Assembly (NCBI GenBank): GCA_905480575.1
Contig: CAJQQZ010000030.1
Coordinates: 3,521-67,520, forward strand
DNA: 64,000 nt
DNA from: an uncultured Alphaproteobacteria bacterium
GTDB lineage: Bacteria > Pseudomonadota > Alphaproteobacteria > UBA7985 > CAJQQZ01
Direction: 5' to 3'
The position numbers and the translations under genes are program-made. Of this stretch, positions 59,957 through 64,000 are shown in pieces. Numbering within the stretch: the stretch's first letter is position 1; each line of letters begins with the position of its first letter. Below the pieces are notes generated by a model, which was not told where the DNA came from, ran no database searches, and saw only the letters and a list, made by a program, of their open reading frames with translations.

Positions 59957-60973
59957 ATGCGGATTTTGATTATCGGCCTTGGGTCAATGGGCAAAAGAAG
60001 AGCTGGTAATCTTTTGGGCTTGTCGAGAGTAACGGAAGTTCGTGGATGGGACCCAAGAGAAGACAGGCGACAAGAAGCAGAAGCCCAAAGAGGAATCACC
60101 ACTTTTGTGGAACTAGATCAGGCCTATGATTGGAAACCTGATGCAATCGTTATTTCTACTCCCCCAAATTACCATACAATCTACGCAAAGCAAGCGGCTA
60201 CTCTCAAGATTCCATTCTTTGTAGAGGCATCGGTTCTTGACGATGGATTAGACGAAGTTGTCGGAATTCTTAATGATAATCATGCACTTGGCGTTCCGTC
60301 ATGCACAATGAGGTTTCACCCTGATGTTCAGGCGATGAAACGCCTTATTGAGGATGGTGCTTTAGGCGATCCAACAAACAGAATTGGCTTTACATACCAT
60401 ATGGGGCAATACTTGCCAGACTGGCATCCAAATGAAGATTACAGGAAGTTCTACGTAGGGCAGAAAGAAACTTCAGCTGCTCGCGAAATGGTTTGTTTTG
60501 AGGCGGTGTGGATGTCTTGGCTCATTGGACTGCCAAAGCAAGTTATGGCGCAGCGATCCAAATTGACAGATTTAGATGCCGACATTGATGACATTTATCA
60601 ATTGCTGACAGTCCACGAGACTGGTGCAATGGGATCCACGATGATTGATGTCATAGCGCGCCATCCATATCGGCATCTGAGACTATTGAGCGAAGATGGC
60701 ATTATAGAATGGTCTGCCCTGGATAAAAGCCTGAAATATTTCGACGGCAAAACCAAGTCCTGGTCTCAAATTGGAGATGGCGACAAAACAGGTTACAGCG
60801 GTGGAAACTTCACGGGCGAAGAAATGTACGTGAAGGAAATGGATGCATTCCTTGATGTAGCCGAAGGAAATCGAGCAGCTTTCCCATATTCGTTTGAAGA
60901 TGATATTCGAGTACTTTCATACCTAAGAGCAGCTGAGACAAGTGACGATACTGGACGCCTTGTAAAACTATAG
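59957..60973 (+). CDS. Gfo/Idh/MocA oxidoreductase (sugar-nucleotide pathway associated)
   Basis: IIGLGSMGKR, AIVISTPPNYH, GQYLPDWHP.EDYR. Confidence 0.88.
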   Translation: MRILIIGLGSMGKRRAGNLLGLSRVTEVRGWDPREDRRQEAEAQRGITTFVELDQAYDWKPDAIVISTPPNYHTIYAKQAATLKIPFFVEASVLDDGLDEVVGILNDNHALGVPSCTMRFHPDVQAMKRLIEDGALGDPTNRIGFTYHMGQYLPDWHPNEDYRKFYVGQKETSAAREMVCFEAVWMSWLIGLPKQVMAQRSKLTDLDADIDDIYQLLTVHETGAMGSTMIDVIARHPYRHLRLLSEDGIIEWSALDKSLKYFDGKTKSWSQIGDGDKTGYSGGNFTGEEMYVKEMDAFLDVAEGNRAAFPYSFEDDIRVLSYLRAAETSDDTGRLVKL

Positions 60974-61013
60974 TCCTGTTTTTGGATTGATAAAATTTTA
61001 GTGAGCTCATGAA

Positions 61014-61997
61014 ATGACACTTAAAGGGAAGCGCGTTCTTGTAACTGGAGCCGGTGGTTTCATCGGCAGCCATTTGACGGAAAGATTGGTCGAAATGGGA
61101 GCAGATACAACTGCTCTGGTTCGTTACAATTCTTGCTCAAATAGAGGCTGGCTGGAACAATCTCGTCACGCAAAGAACATCAAGTTCGAATTTGGTGATA
61201 TTGTTGATCAGTCCTTTGTACGATCGATCGTCAAGGACCAGGATTACGTCTTTCATCTTGCTGCCTTGATAGGAATACCGTTTTCCTATGTTGCACCGAA
61301 CTATTATGTGGCAACCAACGTTCAAGGCACAGTCAACATTGTAGAAGCGGTCAGAGATTTTGGTGTTTCTCGTCTACTCACTACTTCAACATCAGAAACC
61401 TATGGTACGGCAAGAACAACGCCCATCAGAGAAGATCATCCCATGCAGCCGCAGAGCCCTTACTCTGCGTCAAAAATTGCTGCCGATAATCTGGCTCAAT
61501 CCTTTTATCTTTCTTTTGATACTCCTGTAACCATTGTCCGGCCATTCAACACTTTCGGGCCTCGCCAATCTGCGCGAGCAATCATCCCCACCATAATTTC
61601 ACAATTGTTGACGCAAGATCAGCTTTCATTGGGCAGTTTGAGTCCAACTCGGGATCTGAATTATGTCGGAAACACAGTGGATGGTTTCATAGCAGCGGCG
61701 CTTTCAGACAAGGCGATAGGAGAAACTATAAACTTTGGCTTTGGAAAAGAAATTTCCATTGGTGATCTTGCGCAGCTGATCATGCAAATCATGGGCAAAA
61801 AGGTTGAAATTGTGACAGAAGAGGTCCGGCTTCGCCCAGAAAAATCTGAAGTGTTCAGATTGATTTCTGACAACAGCAGGGCGAAAGAAATCACAGGCTG
61901 GGAACCAAAGATTGGATTAAAAGAAGGGTTGACCGAAACTATTCATTGGCTCGAGAAAAACATATCGAGGTATAGGCCAAATGAATACGCTCGGTAA
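61014..61997 (+). CDS. legB: NAD-dependent nucleotide-sugar 4,6-dehydratase, LegB-like
   Basis: VTGAGGFIGSHL, HLAALIGIPFSY, STSETYG, PQSPYSASK, RPFNTFGPRQSARA, RLRPEKSEV.RL. Confidence 0.8.
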   Translation: MTLKGKRVLVTGAGGFIGSHLTERLVEMGADTTALVRYNSCSNRGWLEQSRHAKNIKFEFGDIVDQSFVRSIVKDQDYVFHLAALIGIPFSYVAPNYYVATNVQGTVNIVEAVRDFGVSRLLTTSTSETYGTARTTPIREDHPMQPQSPYSASKIAADNLAQSFYLSFDTPVTIVRPFNTFGPRQSARAIIPTIISQLLTQDQLSLGSLSPTRDLNYVGNTVDGFIAAALSDKAIGETINFGFGKEISIGDLAQLIMQIMGKKVEIVTEEVRLRPEKSEVFRLISDNSRAKEITGWEPKIGLKEGLTETIHWLEKNISRYRPNEYAR

Positions 61998-62015
61998 AAC
62001 TGAATTTGGGTCAAA

Positions 62016-63197
62016 TTGATGGTTATCGCTGTTTCAGAACCCAACGTTGGCCAACGGGAATACAAAAACCTTGCTCATTGTATTGATAGCGGTTGGGTTT
62101 CTGCTAAGGGCAGTTTTGTAACCGAATTTGAGAAACGAGTAGCCGAAAGTATGGGCAGTACCGCGGCCGGTTTTGCTACTTGTTCTGGTACGACAGCGCT
62201 GCATCTTTCACTGCATTGTGTGGGTGTGAAAAGCGGTGATCTGGTTATTTGCCCTGGCTTCTCTTTTATTGCAACGGCTAATGCTATCGCTCACGCTGGC
62301 GCCACACCTTGGTTTTTTGACATAGATTCCAGTAATTGGTGCTTGGATGTTGAAAAACTTGAAGCCGCGCTCGAACAAGAATTAGTGAAAGACACGTCCG
62401 GGGTCTGGGTCCGAAAAGACTGTGGTCGACCTTTGTCGGCAATTATGCCCGTCTATACATTGGGCAACACACCTGACTTGCAAAAAATCCTGAATCTGGC
62501 TCGTAAGTATGACCTCAAGATTGTAGCTGATGCAGCTTGCGCGGTTGGCAGTACTCATTTGGGAGAAAAACTGGCGCGCTACGCCGACTTGAGCTGTTTG
62601 AGTTTCAATGGCAACAAATTGGTTACCACTGGATGTGGTGGTATGATTGTCGGCGGAAGAAGCGACAACGAAGAGAAGCAACCCATCGAGCTTGCTCGTC
62701 ATGTTGGTGAAACTGCAAGGGTACTTCCAGGCTATGATCATGATCGCGTTGGTTACAATTACCGAATGTCAAATATCGAAGCGGCGGTCGGTTGTGCTCA
62801 ATTGGATCGGTTGGACGAATTCTTAGAGAGAAAACAACAAATCCGAGACTTCTACAAAAAAGTTCTTGAAGACTTGGACGGTATGAATCCTTTTCCGGAT
62901 ATCAACGAAAACGACAGCTGCAATTGGCTATCAGGTGTCGTGATCGAGAATTCGTCCGAAATGGAGATTGAGGACATTAAATCTTTGTTCCGTGGCGCCT
63001 CTGTGCAGCTGATGCCTTTCTGGAAGCCATTACATTTGCAGCCTCCCTTTGTTGAGGCTCCTTGCCAAGATCTATCCGTAACGGAACAATTGTGGACGCA
63101 GATATTTGCTTTGCCTTGTTCCACGGGGATAACAGACGAACAGTTGAAAATAGTTGCAGATTTACTGAGAAGTTTTTCTGGAACCAGGTCAAAATAA
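62016..63197 (+). CDS. legC: DegT/DnrJ-family aminotransferase, LegC-like
   Basis: GWVSAKG.FV.EFE, SGTTALHL, FIATANAI, DAAC, SFNGNKLVTTG, GYNYRMSNI.AA.G.AQ. Confidence 0.8.
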   Translation: MMVIAVSEPNVGQREYKNLAHCIDSGWVSAKGSFVTEFEKRVAESMGSTAAGFATCSGTTALHLSLHCVGVKSGDLVICPGFSFIATANAIAHAGATPWFFDIDSSNWCLDVEKLEAALEQELVKDTSGVWVRKDCGRPLSAIMPVYTLGNTPDLQKILNLARKYDLKIVADAACAVGSTHLGEKLARYADLSCLSFNGNKLVTTGCGGMIVGGRSDNEEKQPIELARHVGETARVLPGYDHDRVGYNYRMSNIEAAVGCAQLDRLDEFLERKQQIRDFYKKVLEDLDGMNPFPDINENDSCNWLSGVVIENSSEMEIEDIKSLFRGASVQLMPFWKPLHLQPPFVEAPCQDLSVTEQLWTQIFALPCSTGITDEQLKIVADLLRSFSGTRSK

Positions 63198-63242
63198 GTC
63201 ATTTGCGAACGGGAAAACCGTTCAATTCGAAAGGAAAACGAG

Positions 63243-64000
63243 ATGAGTTCAGTTGAAATTGGTGGCGTTAAAGTCGGAGATGGAAACCCGGTCTACGTCG
63301 TAGCTGAAATGGCCTGGTCCCACGATGGAACGGTCGAAAATGGCAAAAAGATCATCGATATAGCAGCAGCTGGTGGCGCCCAAGCCATCAACATGCACCT
63401 CACGTCGGTTGCCGATTACATCGTGCCTAACTATGGTTTGGATATTTCACCTTTGGCAGACAACAAAGATCCAAATTCGGCTTTTAACTACCTAGCGAAT
63501 ATCAATCTTTCATTCGGCGATTTCAAAAACCTGGCGGCTCATGCAAGATCGCTTGGCTTATCCGTTTCGATTATGTGTAACGATGATCCTTCTTTGGATT
63601 ATGCCGCTGCAGAGATTAATCCAGAAATCCTGATGATCCATCCATCCTGCGTTGGCGACCGAGATTTTGTTGCTAGAGTGGCTGAGAAAGCAAACGTTTT
63701 ACTGCTCTATGTTGGTGGCCTAAGCCTTGGAGAAATTGAAAGATCTGTCATTGCGGCAAGCGAAGCAGGTTGTGATTCGATTATCTTGCAACATGGCTTT
63801 CAATCCTACCCGACACCGATTGAAGAGAATAATCTGCATTATATTCCTACACTAAAGAAACTTTTTGATGTTCCCGTCGCCTTTGGTGATCATACGGATG
63901 GCGGTGATCCTTTTGCTCTGGTTATTCCAGCAGTCGCCACTGGCGTTGGCGCAAACCTTATTGAAAAACATTTGACCCATGATCGTTCGGTCAAAGGTGA
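63243..64000 (+). CDS. N-acetylneuraminate-synthase (NeuB) family protein, divergent; truncated by the window edge
   Basis: Not in the ORF track. Hand translation MSSVEIGGVKVGDGNPVYVVAEMAWSHDG...LQHGFQSYPTP..NL..I..LK..F.VPVAFGDHT...LIEKHLTHDRS.KG; no stop before 64000. Confidence 0.85.
   Translation, partial: MSSVEIGGVKVGDGNPVYVVAEMAWSHDGTVENGKKIIDIAAAGGAQAINMHLTSVADYIVPNYGLDISPLADNKDPNSAFNYLANINLSFGDFKNLAAHARSLGLSVSIMCNDDPSLDYAAAEINPEILMIHPSCVGDRDFVARVAEKANVLLLYVGGLSLGEIERSVIAASEAGCDSIILQHGFQSYPTPIEENNLHYIPTLKKLFDVPVAFGDHTDGGDPFALVIPAVATGVGANLIEKHLTHDRSVKG

Follow-up and report, generated by a model that had tools for sequence, protein, structure and literature searches.

A divergent NeuB-family protein with an apparently remodelled phosphoenolpyruvate site, encoded beside an SpsF-type cytidylyltransferase in an alphaproteobacterial legionaminic-acid-type gene cluster

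The divergent NeuB gene and its active site

The window analysed here is a stretch of 64,000 nucleotides from an uncultured alphaproteobacterium, which corresponds to positions 3521-67520 of contig C30 (CAJQQZ010000030.1) in a 4.03-Mb, 99.8%-complete genome. Its plus strand ends in an open reading frame (window 63243..64000) that encodes a divergent member of the NeuB family, the fourth gene of a legionaminic-acid-type cluster. The frame starts with an ATG at 63243, preceded at a distance of 4 nucleotides by a Shine-Dalgarno-like AAAGGAAAA (63230..63238, plus strand) read off the sequence, and remains open up to the window end, continuing for 313 nucleotides beyond it. In the locus extract L002, which is taken from the same contig and runs past the end of the window, the complete gene (C30 66763-67833, L002 3243-4313) codes for 356 amino acids, the first 252 of which lie within the window.

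The part of the protein encoded in the window matches the Pfam NeuB family (PF03102) with 101 bits, at a cut-off of 22.1, and its homologs carry both PF03102 and the SAF domain (PF08666). The full-length protein does not reach the curated synthase models, since it scores 175.4 bits against a cut-off of 399.65 on TIGR03569 (NeuB_NnaB) and 149.8 bits against 340.25 on TIGR03586 (PseI). The AlphaFold2 model, which has a mean predicted local distance difference test (pLDDT) score of 94.7, is made of a TIM barrel followed by a SAF domain, and its best Foldseek matches are Neisseria meningitidis NeuB (template modelling, TM, score 0.84; 2wqp/1xuu) and Campylobacter jejuni PseI. BLASTP aligned the protein to the canonical NeuB of its own cluster with 28% identity (E 2e-41). 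The divergent NeuB is therefore an intact NeuB-fold protein, and belongs to a widespread sister branch of the NeuB/LegI/PseI synthases of nonulosonic acids (NulOs).

In N. meningitidis NeuB (NmNeuB) the phosphate of phosphoenolpyruvate (PEP) is bound by Ser132, Ser154, Ser213 and Asn184, its carboxylate by Lys53 and Lys129, with Thr110 nearby, and N-acetylmannosamine by Gln55, Asn74, Tyr186, Asp247 and the SAF-domain residue Arg314 (PMC11339185 and PMC8208679, which both refer to Gunawan 2005). The metal ligands are His215 and His236, and the proposed catalytic residues are Glu25, Glu134 (Glu/Asp) and Glu234 (PMC11339185, PMC8208679). A first-pass annotation of this DNA had read the motifs AEMAWSHDG, AINMH, IMCN, MIHP, YVG, SYP, AFGDH and EKH in the divergent protein and had proposed that the residues exchanged there are documented ligands of PEP and of the sugar. 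All these motifs were found at the expected places, and the assignment of the exchanged residues agrees with PMC11339185.

Along the plus strand, the first of them is AEMAWSHDG (residues 21-29, 63303..63329), which replaces AE(L/I)GxNHxG, is a signature of the clade to which the protein belongs and keeps Glu22 as the equivalent of the catalytic Glu25. AINMH (residues 48-52, 63384..63398) stands in place of AVKFQ, so that Lys53, a ligand of the PEP carboxylate, becomes Asn50 and Gln55 becomes His52. IMCND (residues 110-114, 63570..63584) takes the place of STPF, with Thr110 changed to Met111, Phe112 changed to Asn113, and both Asn113 and Asp114 new and conserved in the clade. In MIHPSC (residues 131-136, 63633..63650), which occupies the position of KIGSGE, Lys129 is replaced by Met131, Ser132 by Pro134 and the catalytic Glu134 by Cys136; this last loss had not been listed in the first-pass annotation. 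YVGG (residues 156-159, 63708..63719) substitutes for STGM and converts Ser154, which binds the PEP phosphate, into Tyr156. QHGFQSYPT (residues 183-191, 63789..63815), which includes QSYP at 187-190, has Gln187, invariant in the clade, at the position of Asn184 and retains Tyr186 as Tyr189. AFGDHTDGGD (residues 213-222, 63879..63908) has Gly215 instead of the phosphate ligand Ser213, and retains Asp214 and the metal ligand His215 as Asp216 and His217; the region after AFGDH contains a clade-specific insertion of five residues with a conserved Asp219. Finally, IEKHLTHDR (residues 240-248, 63960..63986), with EKH at 241-243, keeps both Glu241 (Glu234 of NmNeuB) and the metal ligand His243 (His236), and further on, past the window end, Asp247 and Arg314 are retained as Asp254 and Arg322. 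Two of the three proposed catalytic glutamates, Glu22 and Glu241, are thus kept.

The register of these substitutions was checked in five ways, namely phmmer against PDB chains (solved NeuB, PseI and SpsE structures), BLASTP, MAFFT, a profile of 98 sequences aligned to NmNeuB, and the Foldseek fold match. All five, the fold included, gave the same residue pairing, which rules out an alignment in shifted register; alignment and structure model against N. meningitidis NeuB thus place the substitutions in register.

The same pattern was observed throughout the clade. The equivalents of Glu25, Tyr186, Asp214, His215, Glu234, His236, Asp247 and Arg314 are conserved in 93-98 of the 98 members; in particular, both metal histidines (His217 and His243) and Arg322 are present in 98/98, Asp254 in 97/98 and Tyr189 in 93/98. 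Retention of the PEP residues is low, with Lys129 found in none of the 98 sequences, Thr110 in 1, Ser154 and Ser213 in 3 each, Lys53 in 6 and Ser132 in 24, and at catalytic position 134 neither Glu nor any other acidic residue occurs in a single member (0/98). At the same positions, canonical sequences have Lys53 and Lys129 in 36/36 and Ser132, Ser154 and Ser213 in 35-36 of 36. Positions 53, 129, 134 and 154 are variable inside the clade. Other residues have become fixed in it: His52 (96/98), Asn113 (94/98), Asp114, Ser117 and Gln187 (98/98 each) and Asp219 (at least 90%). No replacement cationic residue conserved at 90% or more was found in the barrel of the clade. The first-pass annotation had stated that the motifs for both PEP and sugar were lost. 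This holds for the PEP half of the site and does not hold for the sugar and metal half, whose residues, among them the SAF arginine holding the N-acetyl group, are conserved at 95-100%. As read from the alignments, a remodelled, non-cationic pocket has taken the place of the PEP half of the site, next to a retained metal and sugar half.

The beta2-alpha2 loop, which in canonical NeuBs is the loop of sugar specificity (PMC7371886), deserves a separate description. Most of the clade has a Gly-rich 'YGxGxGRVSAGK' loop, with Arg/Lys there in 77/98. In the divergent NeuB this loop (residues 64-79, 63432..63479, plus strand) has low pLDDT and does not contain the GxGRVSAGK motif, and it is hypervariable in this protein and in its nearest relatives (P0013, P0034, P0067 and others). 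Since the loop sets sugar specificity in canonical NeuBs, the clade may include sub-specificities.

Conservation and distribution of the branch

A word-indexed search with a threshold of E <= 1e-10 returned 364 homologs, of which the best 120 are about 355 amino acids long and 42-54% identical to the divergent NeuB, apart from one 99%-identical copy and one 225-residue fragment, and are named in the database only as 'N-acetylneuraminate synthase family protein' or 'SpsE'. In an exhaustive HMMER scan the homologs graded into general NeuBs. A tree of 231 homologs showed several non-canonical branches, with signatures QQxK, KQ(D/E)K and KH(M/V)(F/Y), and the clade with His at position 55 and Met at position 110, which stand progressively further from the canonical KQ(T/S)KS...S type. 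The divergent NeuB (P0001 in our numbering; signature N-H-M-...-Q-G) groups inside this last clade, which we defined by the signature xHM..Q[AG] at NmNeuB positions 53/55/110/184/213 together with the motifs AEMAW[SA]HDG and DHTDG.

Positions conserved at 90% or more in the clade are over-represented on the catalytic face, which is formed by the C-terminal ends of the eight barrel strands (odds ratio 3.9, p = 8e-5). Conservation of the face with respect to the rest of the barrel is 0.73/0.60 in the clade and 0.69/0.57 in canonical NeuBs, and the mean pairwise distance is 0.91 in the clade as compared to 0.80 in canonical NeuBs. The clade is under purifying selection and conserves motifs of its own. 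The claim of the first-pass annotation that the changes are concerted and do not represent decay is borne out by these data, in that the catalytic face is as constrained as that of canonical NeuBs. A decaying, functionless duplicate of neuB, to which only the low scores on the synthase equivalog models might point, has a negligible probability and is ruled out by the conservation data: the frame is open, the structure model is confident, the catalytic face is strongly conserved and more than 360 conserved homologs are spread over many phyla.

The distribution of the clade was scanned with one genome per prokaryotic species. Among bacteria it was found in Rhodospirillales, Magnetospirillum, Azospirillum soli, Pelagibacter, Legionella moravica, L. 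bononiensis, Chloroflexota, Saccharibacteria and Nitrospirota, and among archaea in Hadarchaeota, Heimdallarchaeota, Methanomethylicales and Thermoplasmatota. No ortholog of the divergent NeuB was found in 30 relatives of this bacterium (0/30), one of which shares its genus and the others its order or class. In the family around the Magnetospirillum locus, which comes from a metagenome-assembled genome, the clade is rare (2/61 genomes). As a side observation, many of those genomes (G056, G060, G062, G071, G076, G079, G098, G100) contain NeuB domains in open frames of about 735-970 amino acids, and in one protein, P0266, a domain similar to flavin amine oxidases and uridine diphosphate (UDP)-galactopyranose mutases is fused to a NeuB with canonical signature. 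A full-text search of the literature found no paper on this branch or on the four-gene cassette described below, and the large NeuB phylogeny of PMC8208679 does not treat the branch.

The gene cluster and the adjoining cytidylyltransferase

The gene neighbourhood of the clade was analysed by using the proteins of this cluster as probes, together with precomputed Pfam calls, in 36 loci with enough room to judge. A cytidylyltransferase gene lies directly downstream of the divergent NeuB gene in 30/36 loci; the gap between the two is -4 nucleotides in 14 loci and 15 nucleotides or less in most. In the present cluster the CTP_transf_3 cytidylyltransferase (gene 5, L002 4348-5109, plus strand) directly follows the divergent NeuB (gene 4) and starts 34 nucleotides past its stop codon. 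The protein is SpsF-like, its best PDB match being 6OEW. In Bacillus subtilis, spsF mutants still make legionaminic acid (Leg), which is not transferred (PMC7439481).

The CTP_transf_3-type genes of this genome encode KdsB, a MocA-type enzyme and the protein beside the divergent NeuB, with a fourth, weak match of 24 bits on contig C131. No second synthetase of cytidine monophosphate (CMP)-NulO was found elsewhere in this genome, the other matches being KdsB and the MocA-type enzyme. At least 8 of 13 genomes (this one and at least seven others) have, besides KdsB and MocA, no cytidylyltransferase other than that next to the divergent NeuB. Since it is the only candidate left, the adjoining cytidylyltransferase would be, by elimination, the CMP-NulO synthetase.

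The histories of the two proteins are also correlated. In a mirror-tree analysis, the distances of the cytidylyltransferase and of the divergent NeuB gave r = 0.80, and a partial r = 0.66 when the canonical NeuB was taken into account; the partial correlation of the cytidylyltransferase with the canonical NeuB, given the divergent one, was 0.02. Moreover, fusions to CTP_transf_3 occur in sister branches of the divergent NeuB. Among distant homologs (P0136, P0171, P0175, P0244) we observed NeuB-SAF followed by CTP_transf_3, CTP_transf_3 followed by NeuB-SAF, and AP_endonuc_2 followed by NeuB-SAF and CTP_transf_3; in P0136 a canonical NeuB barrel that has no SAF domain of its own is linked to a non-canonical NeuB-SAF and to CTP_transf_3. 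Most of the fused NeuB domains have the KQ(D/E)K signature (Thr110 to Asp/Glu, Asn184 to Gln, Ser213 to Ala/His). The first-pass annotation had suggested, as one possibility, a non-catalytic partner of a second NeuB. Adjacency, overlapping stop and start codons, the fusions of sister branches and the mirror-tree result all indicate a different fixed partner, the SpsF-type cytidylyltransferase.

A canonical neuB, for which the downstream DNA was inspected as the first-pass annotation had suggested, is indeed present 2.4 kb downstream of the divergent gene: the NeuB/LegI of gene 7 (L002 6729-7760, plus strand) scores 433.7 bits on TIGR03569, and this rules out the divergent NeuB as the sole synthase of the cluster. 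These two are the only NeuB-family genes of the genome, and a canonical NeuB was found in addition to the divergent one in 13/13 genomes checked (this one and 12 others).

The remaining genes of the cluster, all on the plus strand unless stated otherwise, complete the picture. Gene 1 (59957..60973) encodes a GFO/IDH/MocA oxidoreductase, gene 2 (61014..61997) a LegB-type NAD-dependent 4,6-dehydratase (TIGR04180, 454 bits, curated cut-off 475) and gene 3 (62016..63197) a LegC-family aminotransferase of the DegT type (TIGR04181, 356 bits, curated cut-off 420). Downstream of the cytidylyltransferase, gene 6 (L002 5186-6634) encodes a TagF/Epimerase_2-like 'surface carbohydrate biosynthesis protein' with a weak match to TIGR04396, and after the canonical NeuB follow NeuC (gene 8, L002 7753-8922), a NeuD-type acetyltransferase (gene 9, L002 8915-9544) and a glutamate-1-semialdehyde (GSA)-like class III aminotransferase (gene 10, L002 9673-11040). 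Three large open reading frames come after this aminotransferase, two of which (L002 12959-14509 and 14513-16399) have no Pfam match, and a putative PtmE-like nucleotidyltransferase of 364 amino acids, so called by similarity to homologs in other clusters, is encoded on the other strand (L002 16449-17543). Judging from these assignments, the cluster is a complete legionaminic-acid-type gene set even without the divergent NeuB. In several other phyla (L006, L007, L014, L020, L025, L045) a homolog of the TagF/Epimerase_2-like protein immediately precedes the divergent NeuB; because of this association the protein is a candidate NulO transferase or polymerase. The GC content of the glycan cluster is 44-46% (window 60001-64000 and L002 1-15000) as compared to 48-52% over the preceding 60 kb, and the sign of the GC skew flips at about 60 kb of the window, which is consistent with an acquired island.

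In 19/36 loci, from both bacteria and archaea, the genes occur in the order NeuB-like, CTP_transf_3, GFO/IDH/MocA and Aminotran_3. The oxidoreductase of gene 1 is a 35-48% identical ortholog of the dehydrogenase that elsewhere follows the pair of NeuB-like and cytidylyltransferase genes, whereas here it has moved to the head of the cluster; the protein had no match in the PDB at E <= 1e-5. The class III aminotransferase of the cassette matches C-6' aminotransferases (7LLD, E 6e-34). Cassette aminotransferases compared with the one of this cluster fall into a group of 47-59% identity (e.g., L012, L005, L021, L043) and a group of 26-33% identity (e.g., L003, L009, L026), which suggests that two aminotransferase subtypes occur in otherwise similar cassettes. 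The dehydrogenase and the aminotransferase are missing from about one third of the loci, therefore the role of the divergent NeuB should be independent of them. The smallest clusters (L006, L014, L027) encode a single Leg-type pathway and a single cytidylyltransferase, together with one canonical and one divergent NeuB.

In L. moravica the cassette is part of a polysaccharide locus of the Wzm/Wzt type, where the adjoining genes encode an ABC transporter of the wzm/wzt type and two glycosyltransferases of family GT2. Genes for a metallo-beta-lactamase-fold protein, a carbon-nitrogen hydrolase and a short-chain dehydrogenase/reductase flank the cassette (L026 9033-9752, 14148-15753). In two Legionella species, including L. 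moravica, the canonical NeuB is located about 33 kb from the divergent one. In some genomes the cassette is accompanied by a B12-binding radical S-adenosylmethionine (SAM) protein, a SPASM radical SAM protein, methyltransferases and a GHMP kinase (L003/L004 3152-6720, L005 8263-9270, L007 11914-13173). Taken with the dehydrogenase and the class III aminotransferase, these genes resemble the GenK/GenQ/GenB scheme, in which C-methylation is followed by oxidation and transamination; by analogy, such cassettes could add one carbon to the sugar backbone.

Proposed role and comparison with known systems

The reading that we prefer, and in which our confidence is about even, is that the divergent NeuB would act as a PEP-independent partner of the cytidylyltransferase, binding or processing the sugar at the step of CMP activation or tailoring. 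The protein would no longer condense PEP with a sugar, and its retained metal and sugar site would hold a legionaminic-type sugar or its hexose precursor. Together with the cytidylyltransferase it would either convert the sugar without the use of PEP, before CMP is attached or afterwards, or present the sugar to the cytidylyltransferase. Where they are present, the GFO/IDH/MocA dehydrogenase would oxidise a hydroxyl of the sugar and the class III aminotransferase would then transaminate the product. Several considerations weigh against this proposal. The order of a NeuB-like gene followed by a cytidylyltransferase gene is also what is expected of a genuine synthase and its activating enzyme, as in the case of B. 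subtilis spsE-spsF, and the basic Leg pathway, as known from C. jejuni, requires no extra step. The mirror-tree correlation may reflect the joint transfer of adjacent genes and not a physical interaction. The geometry of the pocket was inferred from alignment alone. Finally, the Gly-rich Arg/Lys loop that is found in about 80% of the clade, and not in this protein, could bind an anionic co-substrate.

This last point would fit an aldol-type synthase that works with a different donor, such as pyruvate or some other enol(ate), or with a different acceptor, and whose product, a second ulosonic acid, would be activated by the adjoining cytidylyltransferase. Such an enzyme, including the formation of a higher-carbon sugar, was the main idea of the first-pass annotation, and we regard it as quite unlikely. 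It would account for the conservation of the metal site, of the equivalents of Glu25 and Glu234 and of the residues that bind the aldose, including the SAF arginine, as well as for the synthase-then-cytidylyltransferase order and for the fusions in sister branches. It might also be connected with the CMP-activated C10 ulosonic acids, as yet unassigned and bearing a free amine, that are described in Magnetospirillum gryphiswaldense (SugarBase preprint, bioRxiv 10.64898/2026.04.20.719630). However, we found no connection between these sugars and the clade, which occurs in 2/61 genomes of the family around the Magnetospirillum locus. All the PEP ligands and Glu134 are gone, several of these positions are variable inside the clade and no cationic residue conserved at 90% or more replaces them in the barrel. 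In addition, each of the minimal clusters has a single precursor pathway, with one cytidylyltransferase and one canonical NeuB, and in at least 8/13 genomes a single NulO-type cytidylyltransferase is available for two NeuB-family proteins.

The loss of the donor-binding residues and of one catalytic glutamate might otherwise be that of a non-catalytic pseudoenzyme, a former synthase that would now serve the SpsF-type cytidylyltransferase solely as a subunit for structure, oligomerisation or regulation, which we consider unlikely. Adjacency, gene overlap and fusions with the cytidylyltransferase agree with such a subunit, as does the presence of a canonical synthase in every genome checked, and a precedent exists in the vertebrate CMP-sialic acid synthetase, where an inactive phosphatase-like C-terminal domain serves as a tetramerisation platform. 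On the other hand, a mere scaffold would be expected to lose the active-site residues. Their retention disfavours it: both metal histidines, Glu22, Glu241, Asp254, Tyr189 and Arg322 are kept in 93-98 of 98 members from bacteria to archaea, and new invariant polar residues (His27, Asp114, Ser117 and Gln187) lie on a catalytic face that is as constrained as in real NeuBs. Very improbable, in our opinion, is the second idea of the first-pass annotation, that is, a heterodimer with the canonical NeuB in which the SAF domains would cap each other's barrel and tune the specificity of the synthase. NeuB is indeed a domain-swapped dimer in which Arg314 of the SAF domain completes the neighbouring site (PMC11339185), Arg322 is invariant in the clade, the canonical NeuB co-occurs in 13/13 genomes, and P0136 links a SAF-less canonical barrel to a non-canonical NeuB-SAF and a cytidylyltransferase. 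But P0136 belongs to another branch (KQD type), and the canonical NeuB of this cluster has its own SAF domain. Furthermore, the canonical gene normally adjoins neuC and not the divergent gene, it is about 33 kb away in the two Legionella species, and the history of the cytidylyltransferase tracks the divergent NeuB and not the canonical one.

A wider claim, which we regard as possible but doubtful, is that the divergent NeuB and the SpsF-type enzyme would constitute an undescribed two-protein step of NulO biosynthesis, shared by Alphaproteobacteria and Legionella with lineages as distant as Chloroflexota, Saccharibacteria and the archaea of the Asgard group and Hadarchaeota. The NeuB partner would then be the first PEP-independent enzyme of the synthase fold of NeuB/KDO8PS/DAH7PS type, with a new reaction on a legionaminic-type sugar or on its CMP ester. 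This reaction might be an epimerisation, a processing of the ring or anomer, or a preparation of the sugar for the dehydrogenase and aminotransferase pair, and the clusters would make a NulO different from plain 5,7-di-N-acetyllegionaminic acid (Leg5Ac7Ac).

NulOs (sialic, legionaminic and pseudaminic acids) are carried on flagella, capsules, lipopolysaccharides and S-layers, where they influence how hosts and phages recognise the cell, and their pathways are treated as fully assigned, with a synthase followed by a CMP-synthetase. A recurrent step or partner at the stage of CMP activation would have been overlooked so far. Automatic annotation names the branch 'N-acetylneuraminate synthase' although, judging from its residues, PEP would be unable to bind in the known way; as a consequence of this mislabelling, cluster predictions by which two synthases mean two sugars are probably wrong for many genomes. 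The divergent branch could also explain some of the unassigned CMP-ulosonic acids that are now detected by mass spectrometry. What is new here is the rebuilt active site and the unassigned role, whereas the fold and the pathway context are already known.

With the characterised synthases NeuB, LegI and PseI (N. meningitidis NeuB, 1XUZ/2WQP; C. jejuni PseI, 8H2C) the divergent NeuB shares the TIM barrel and SAF architecture (TM score 0.84), the location in a NulO cluster, and the two metal histidines, Glu25, Glu234, Tyr186, Asp247 and the SAF Arg314. It differs from them in the absence of Lys53, Lys129, Ser132, Ser154, Ser213, Thr110 and Glu134, in the possession of its own His52, Asn113, Asp114, Ser117, Gln187 and Asp219, in scores far under the synthase cut-offs, and in co-existing with a canonical synthase in all genomes checked. 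The SpsE-SpsF pair of the Leg pathway of the B. subtilis spore crust (PMC7439481; SpsE, 1VLI) has the same arrangement of a NeuB-family gene followed by an SpsF-type cytidylyltransferase gene. However, in the phmmer alignment SpsE has the canonical AVKFQ with the equivalents of Lys53 and Gln55, this being the only PEP motif compared, and it is genetically required for Leg synthesis (PMC7439481), whereas in the present cluster the copy linked to SpsF lacks the PEP site and a canonical NeuB is encoded separately.

A further parallel is the second 'NulO synthase' of Leptospira interrogans, NP_711794 (PMC3438082, PMC4758666), which is fused to an endonuclease/phosphatase-like domain and encoded beside an aminotransferase and neuA2. 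According to the published description it is likewise a second, distant NeuB in a Leg cluster with an extra aminotransferase and a cytidylyltransferase, and similar fusions of AP_endonuc_2, NeuB and CTP_transf_3 occur among the distant homologs found in this work. Its published reading as part of an animal-like route through N-acetylneuraminic acid 9-phosphate (Neu5Ac-9-P) presumes PEP chemistry.

The pairing of a dehydrogenase with a class III aminotransferase in the cassette resembles the gentamicin pathway, in which oxidation by the dehydrogenase GenQ is followed by C-6' transamination by GenB-type enzymes (7LLD is a class III C-6' aminotransferase of this kind). By analogy, the two cassette enzymes may turn a hydroxyl of the sugar into an amine. 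Differently from GenQ, the cassette dehydrogenase is of the GFO/IDH/MocA type, and the substrate would be a NulO or its precursor. For the divergent NeuB itself, a conceptual parallel is the C-terminal domain of the vertebrate CMP-sialic acid synthetase, in which a fold of a pathway enzyme lost the chemistry it once had and was recruited as partner of the synthetase. The vertebrate domain has no catalytic activity, whereas the divergent NeuB retains a conserved metal site and what appears to be a remodelled polar pocket.

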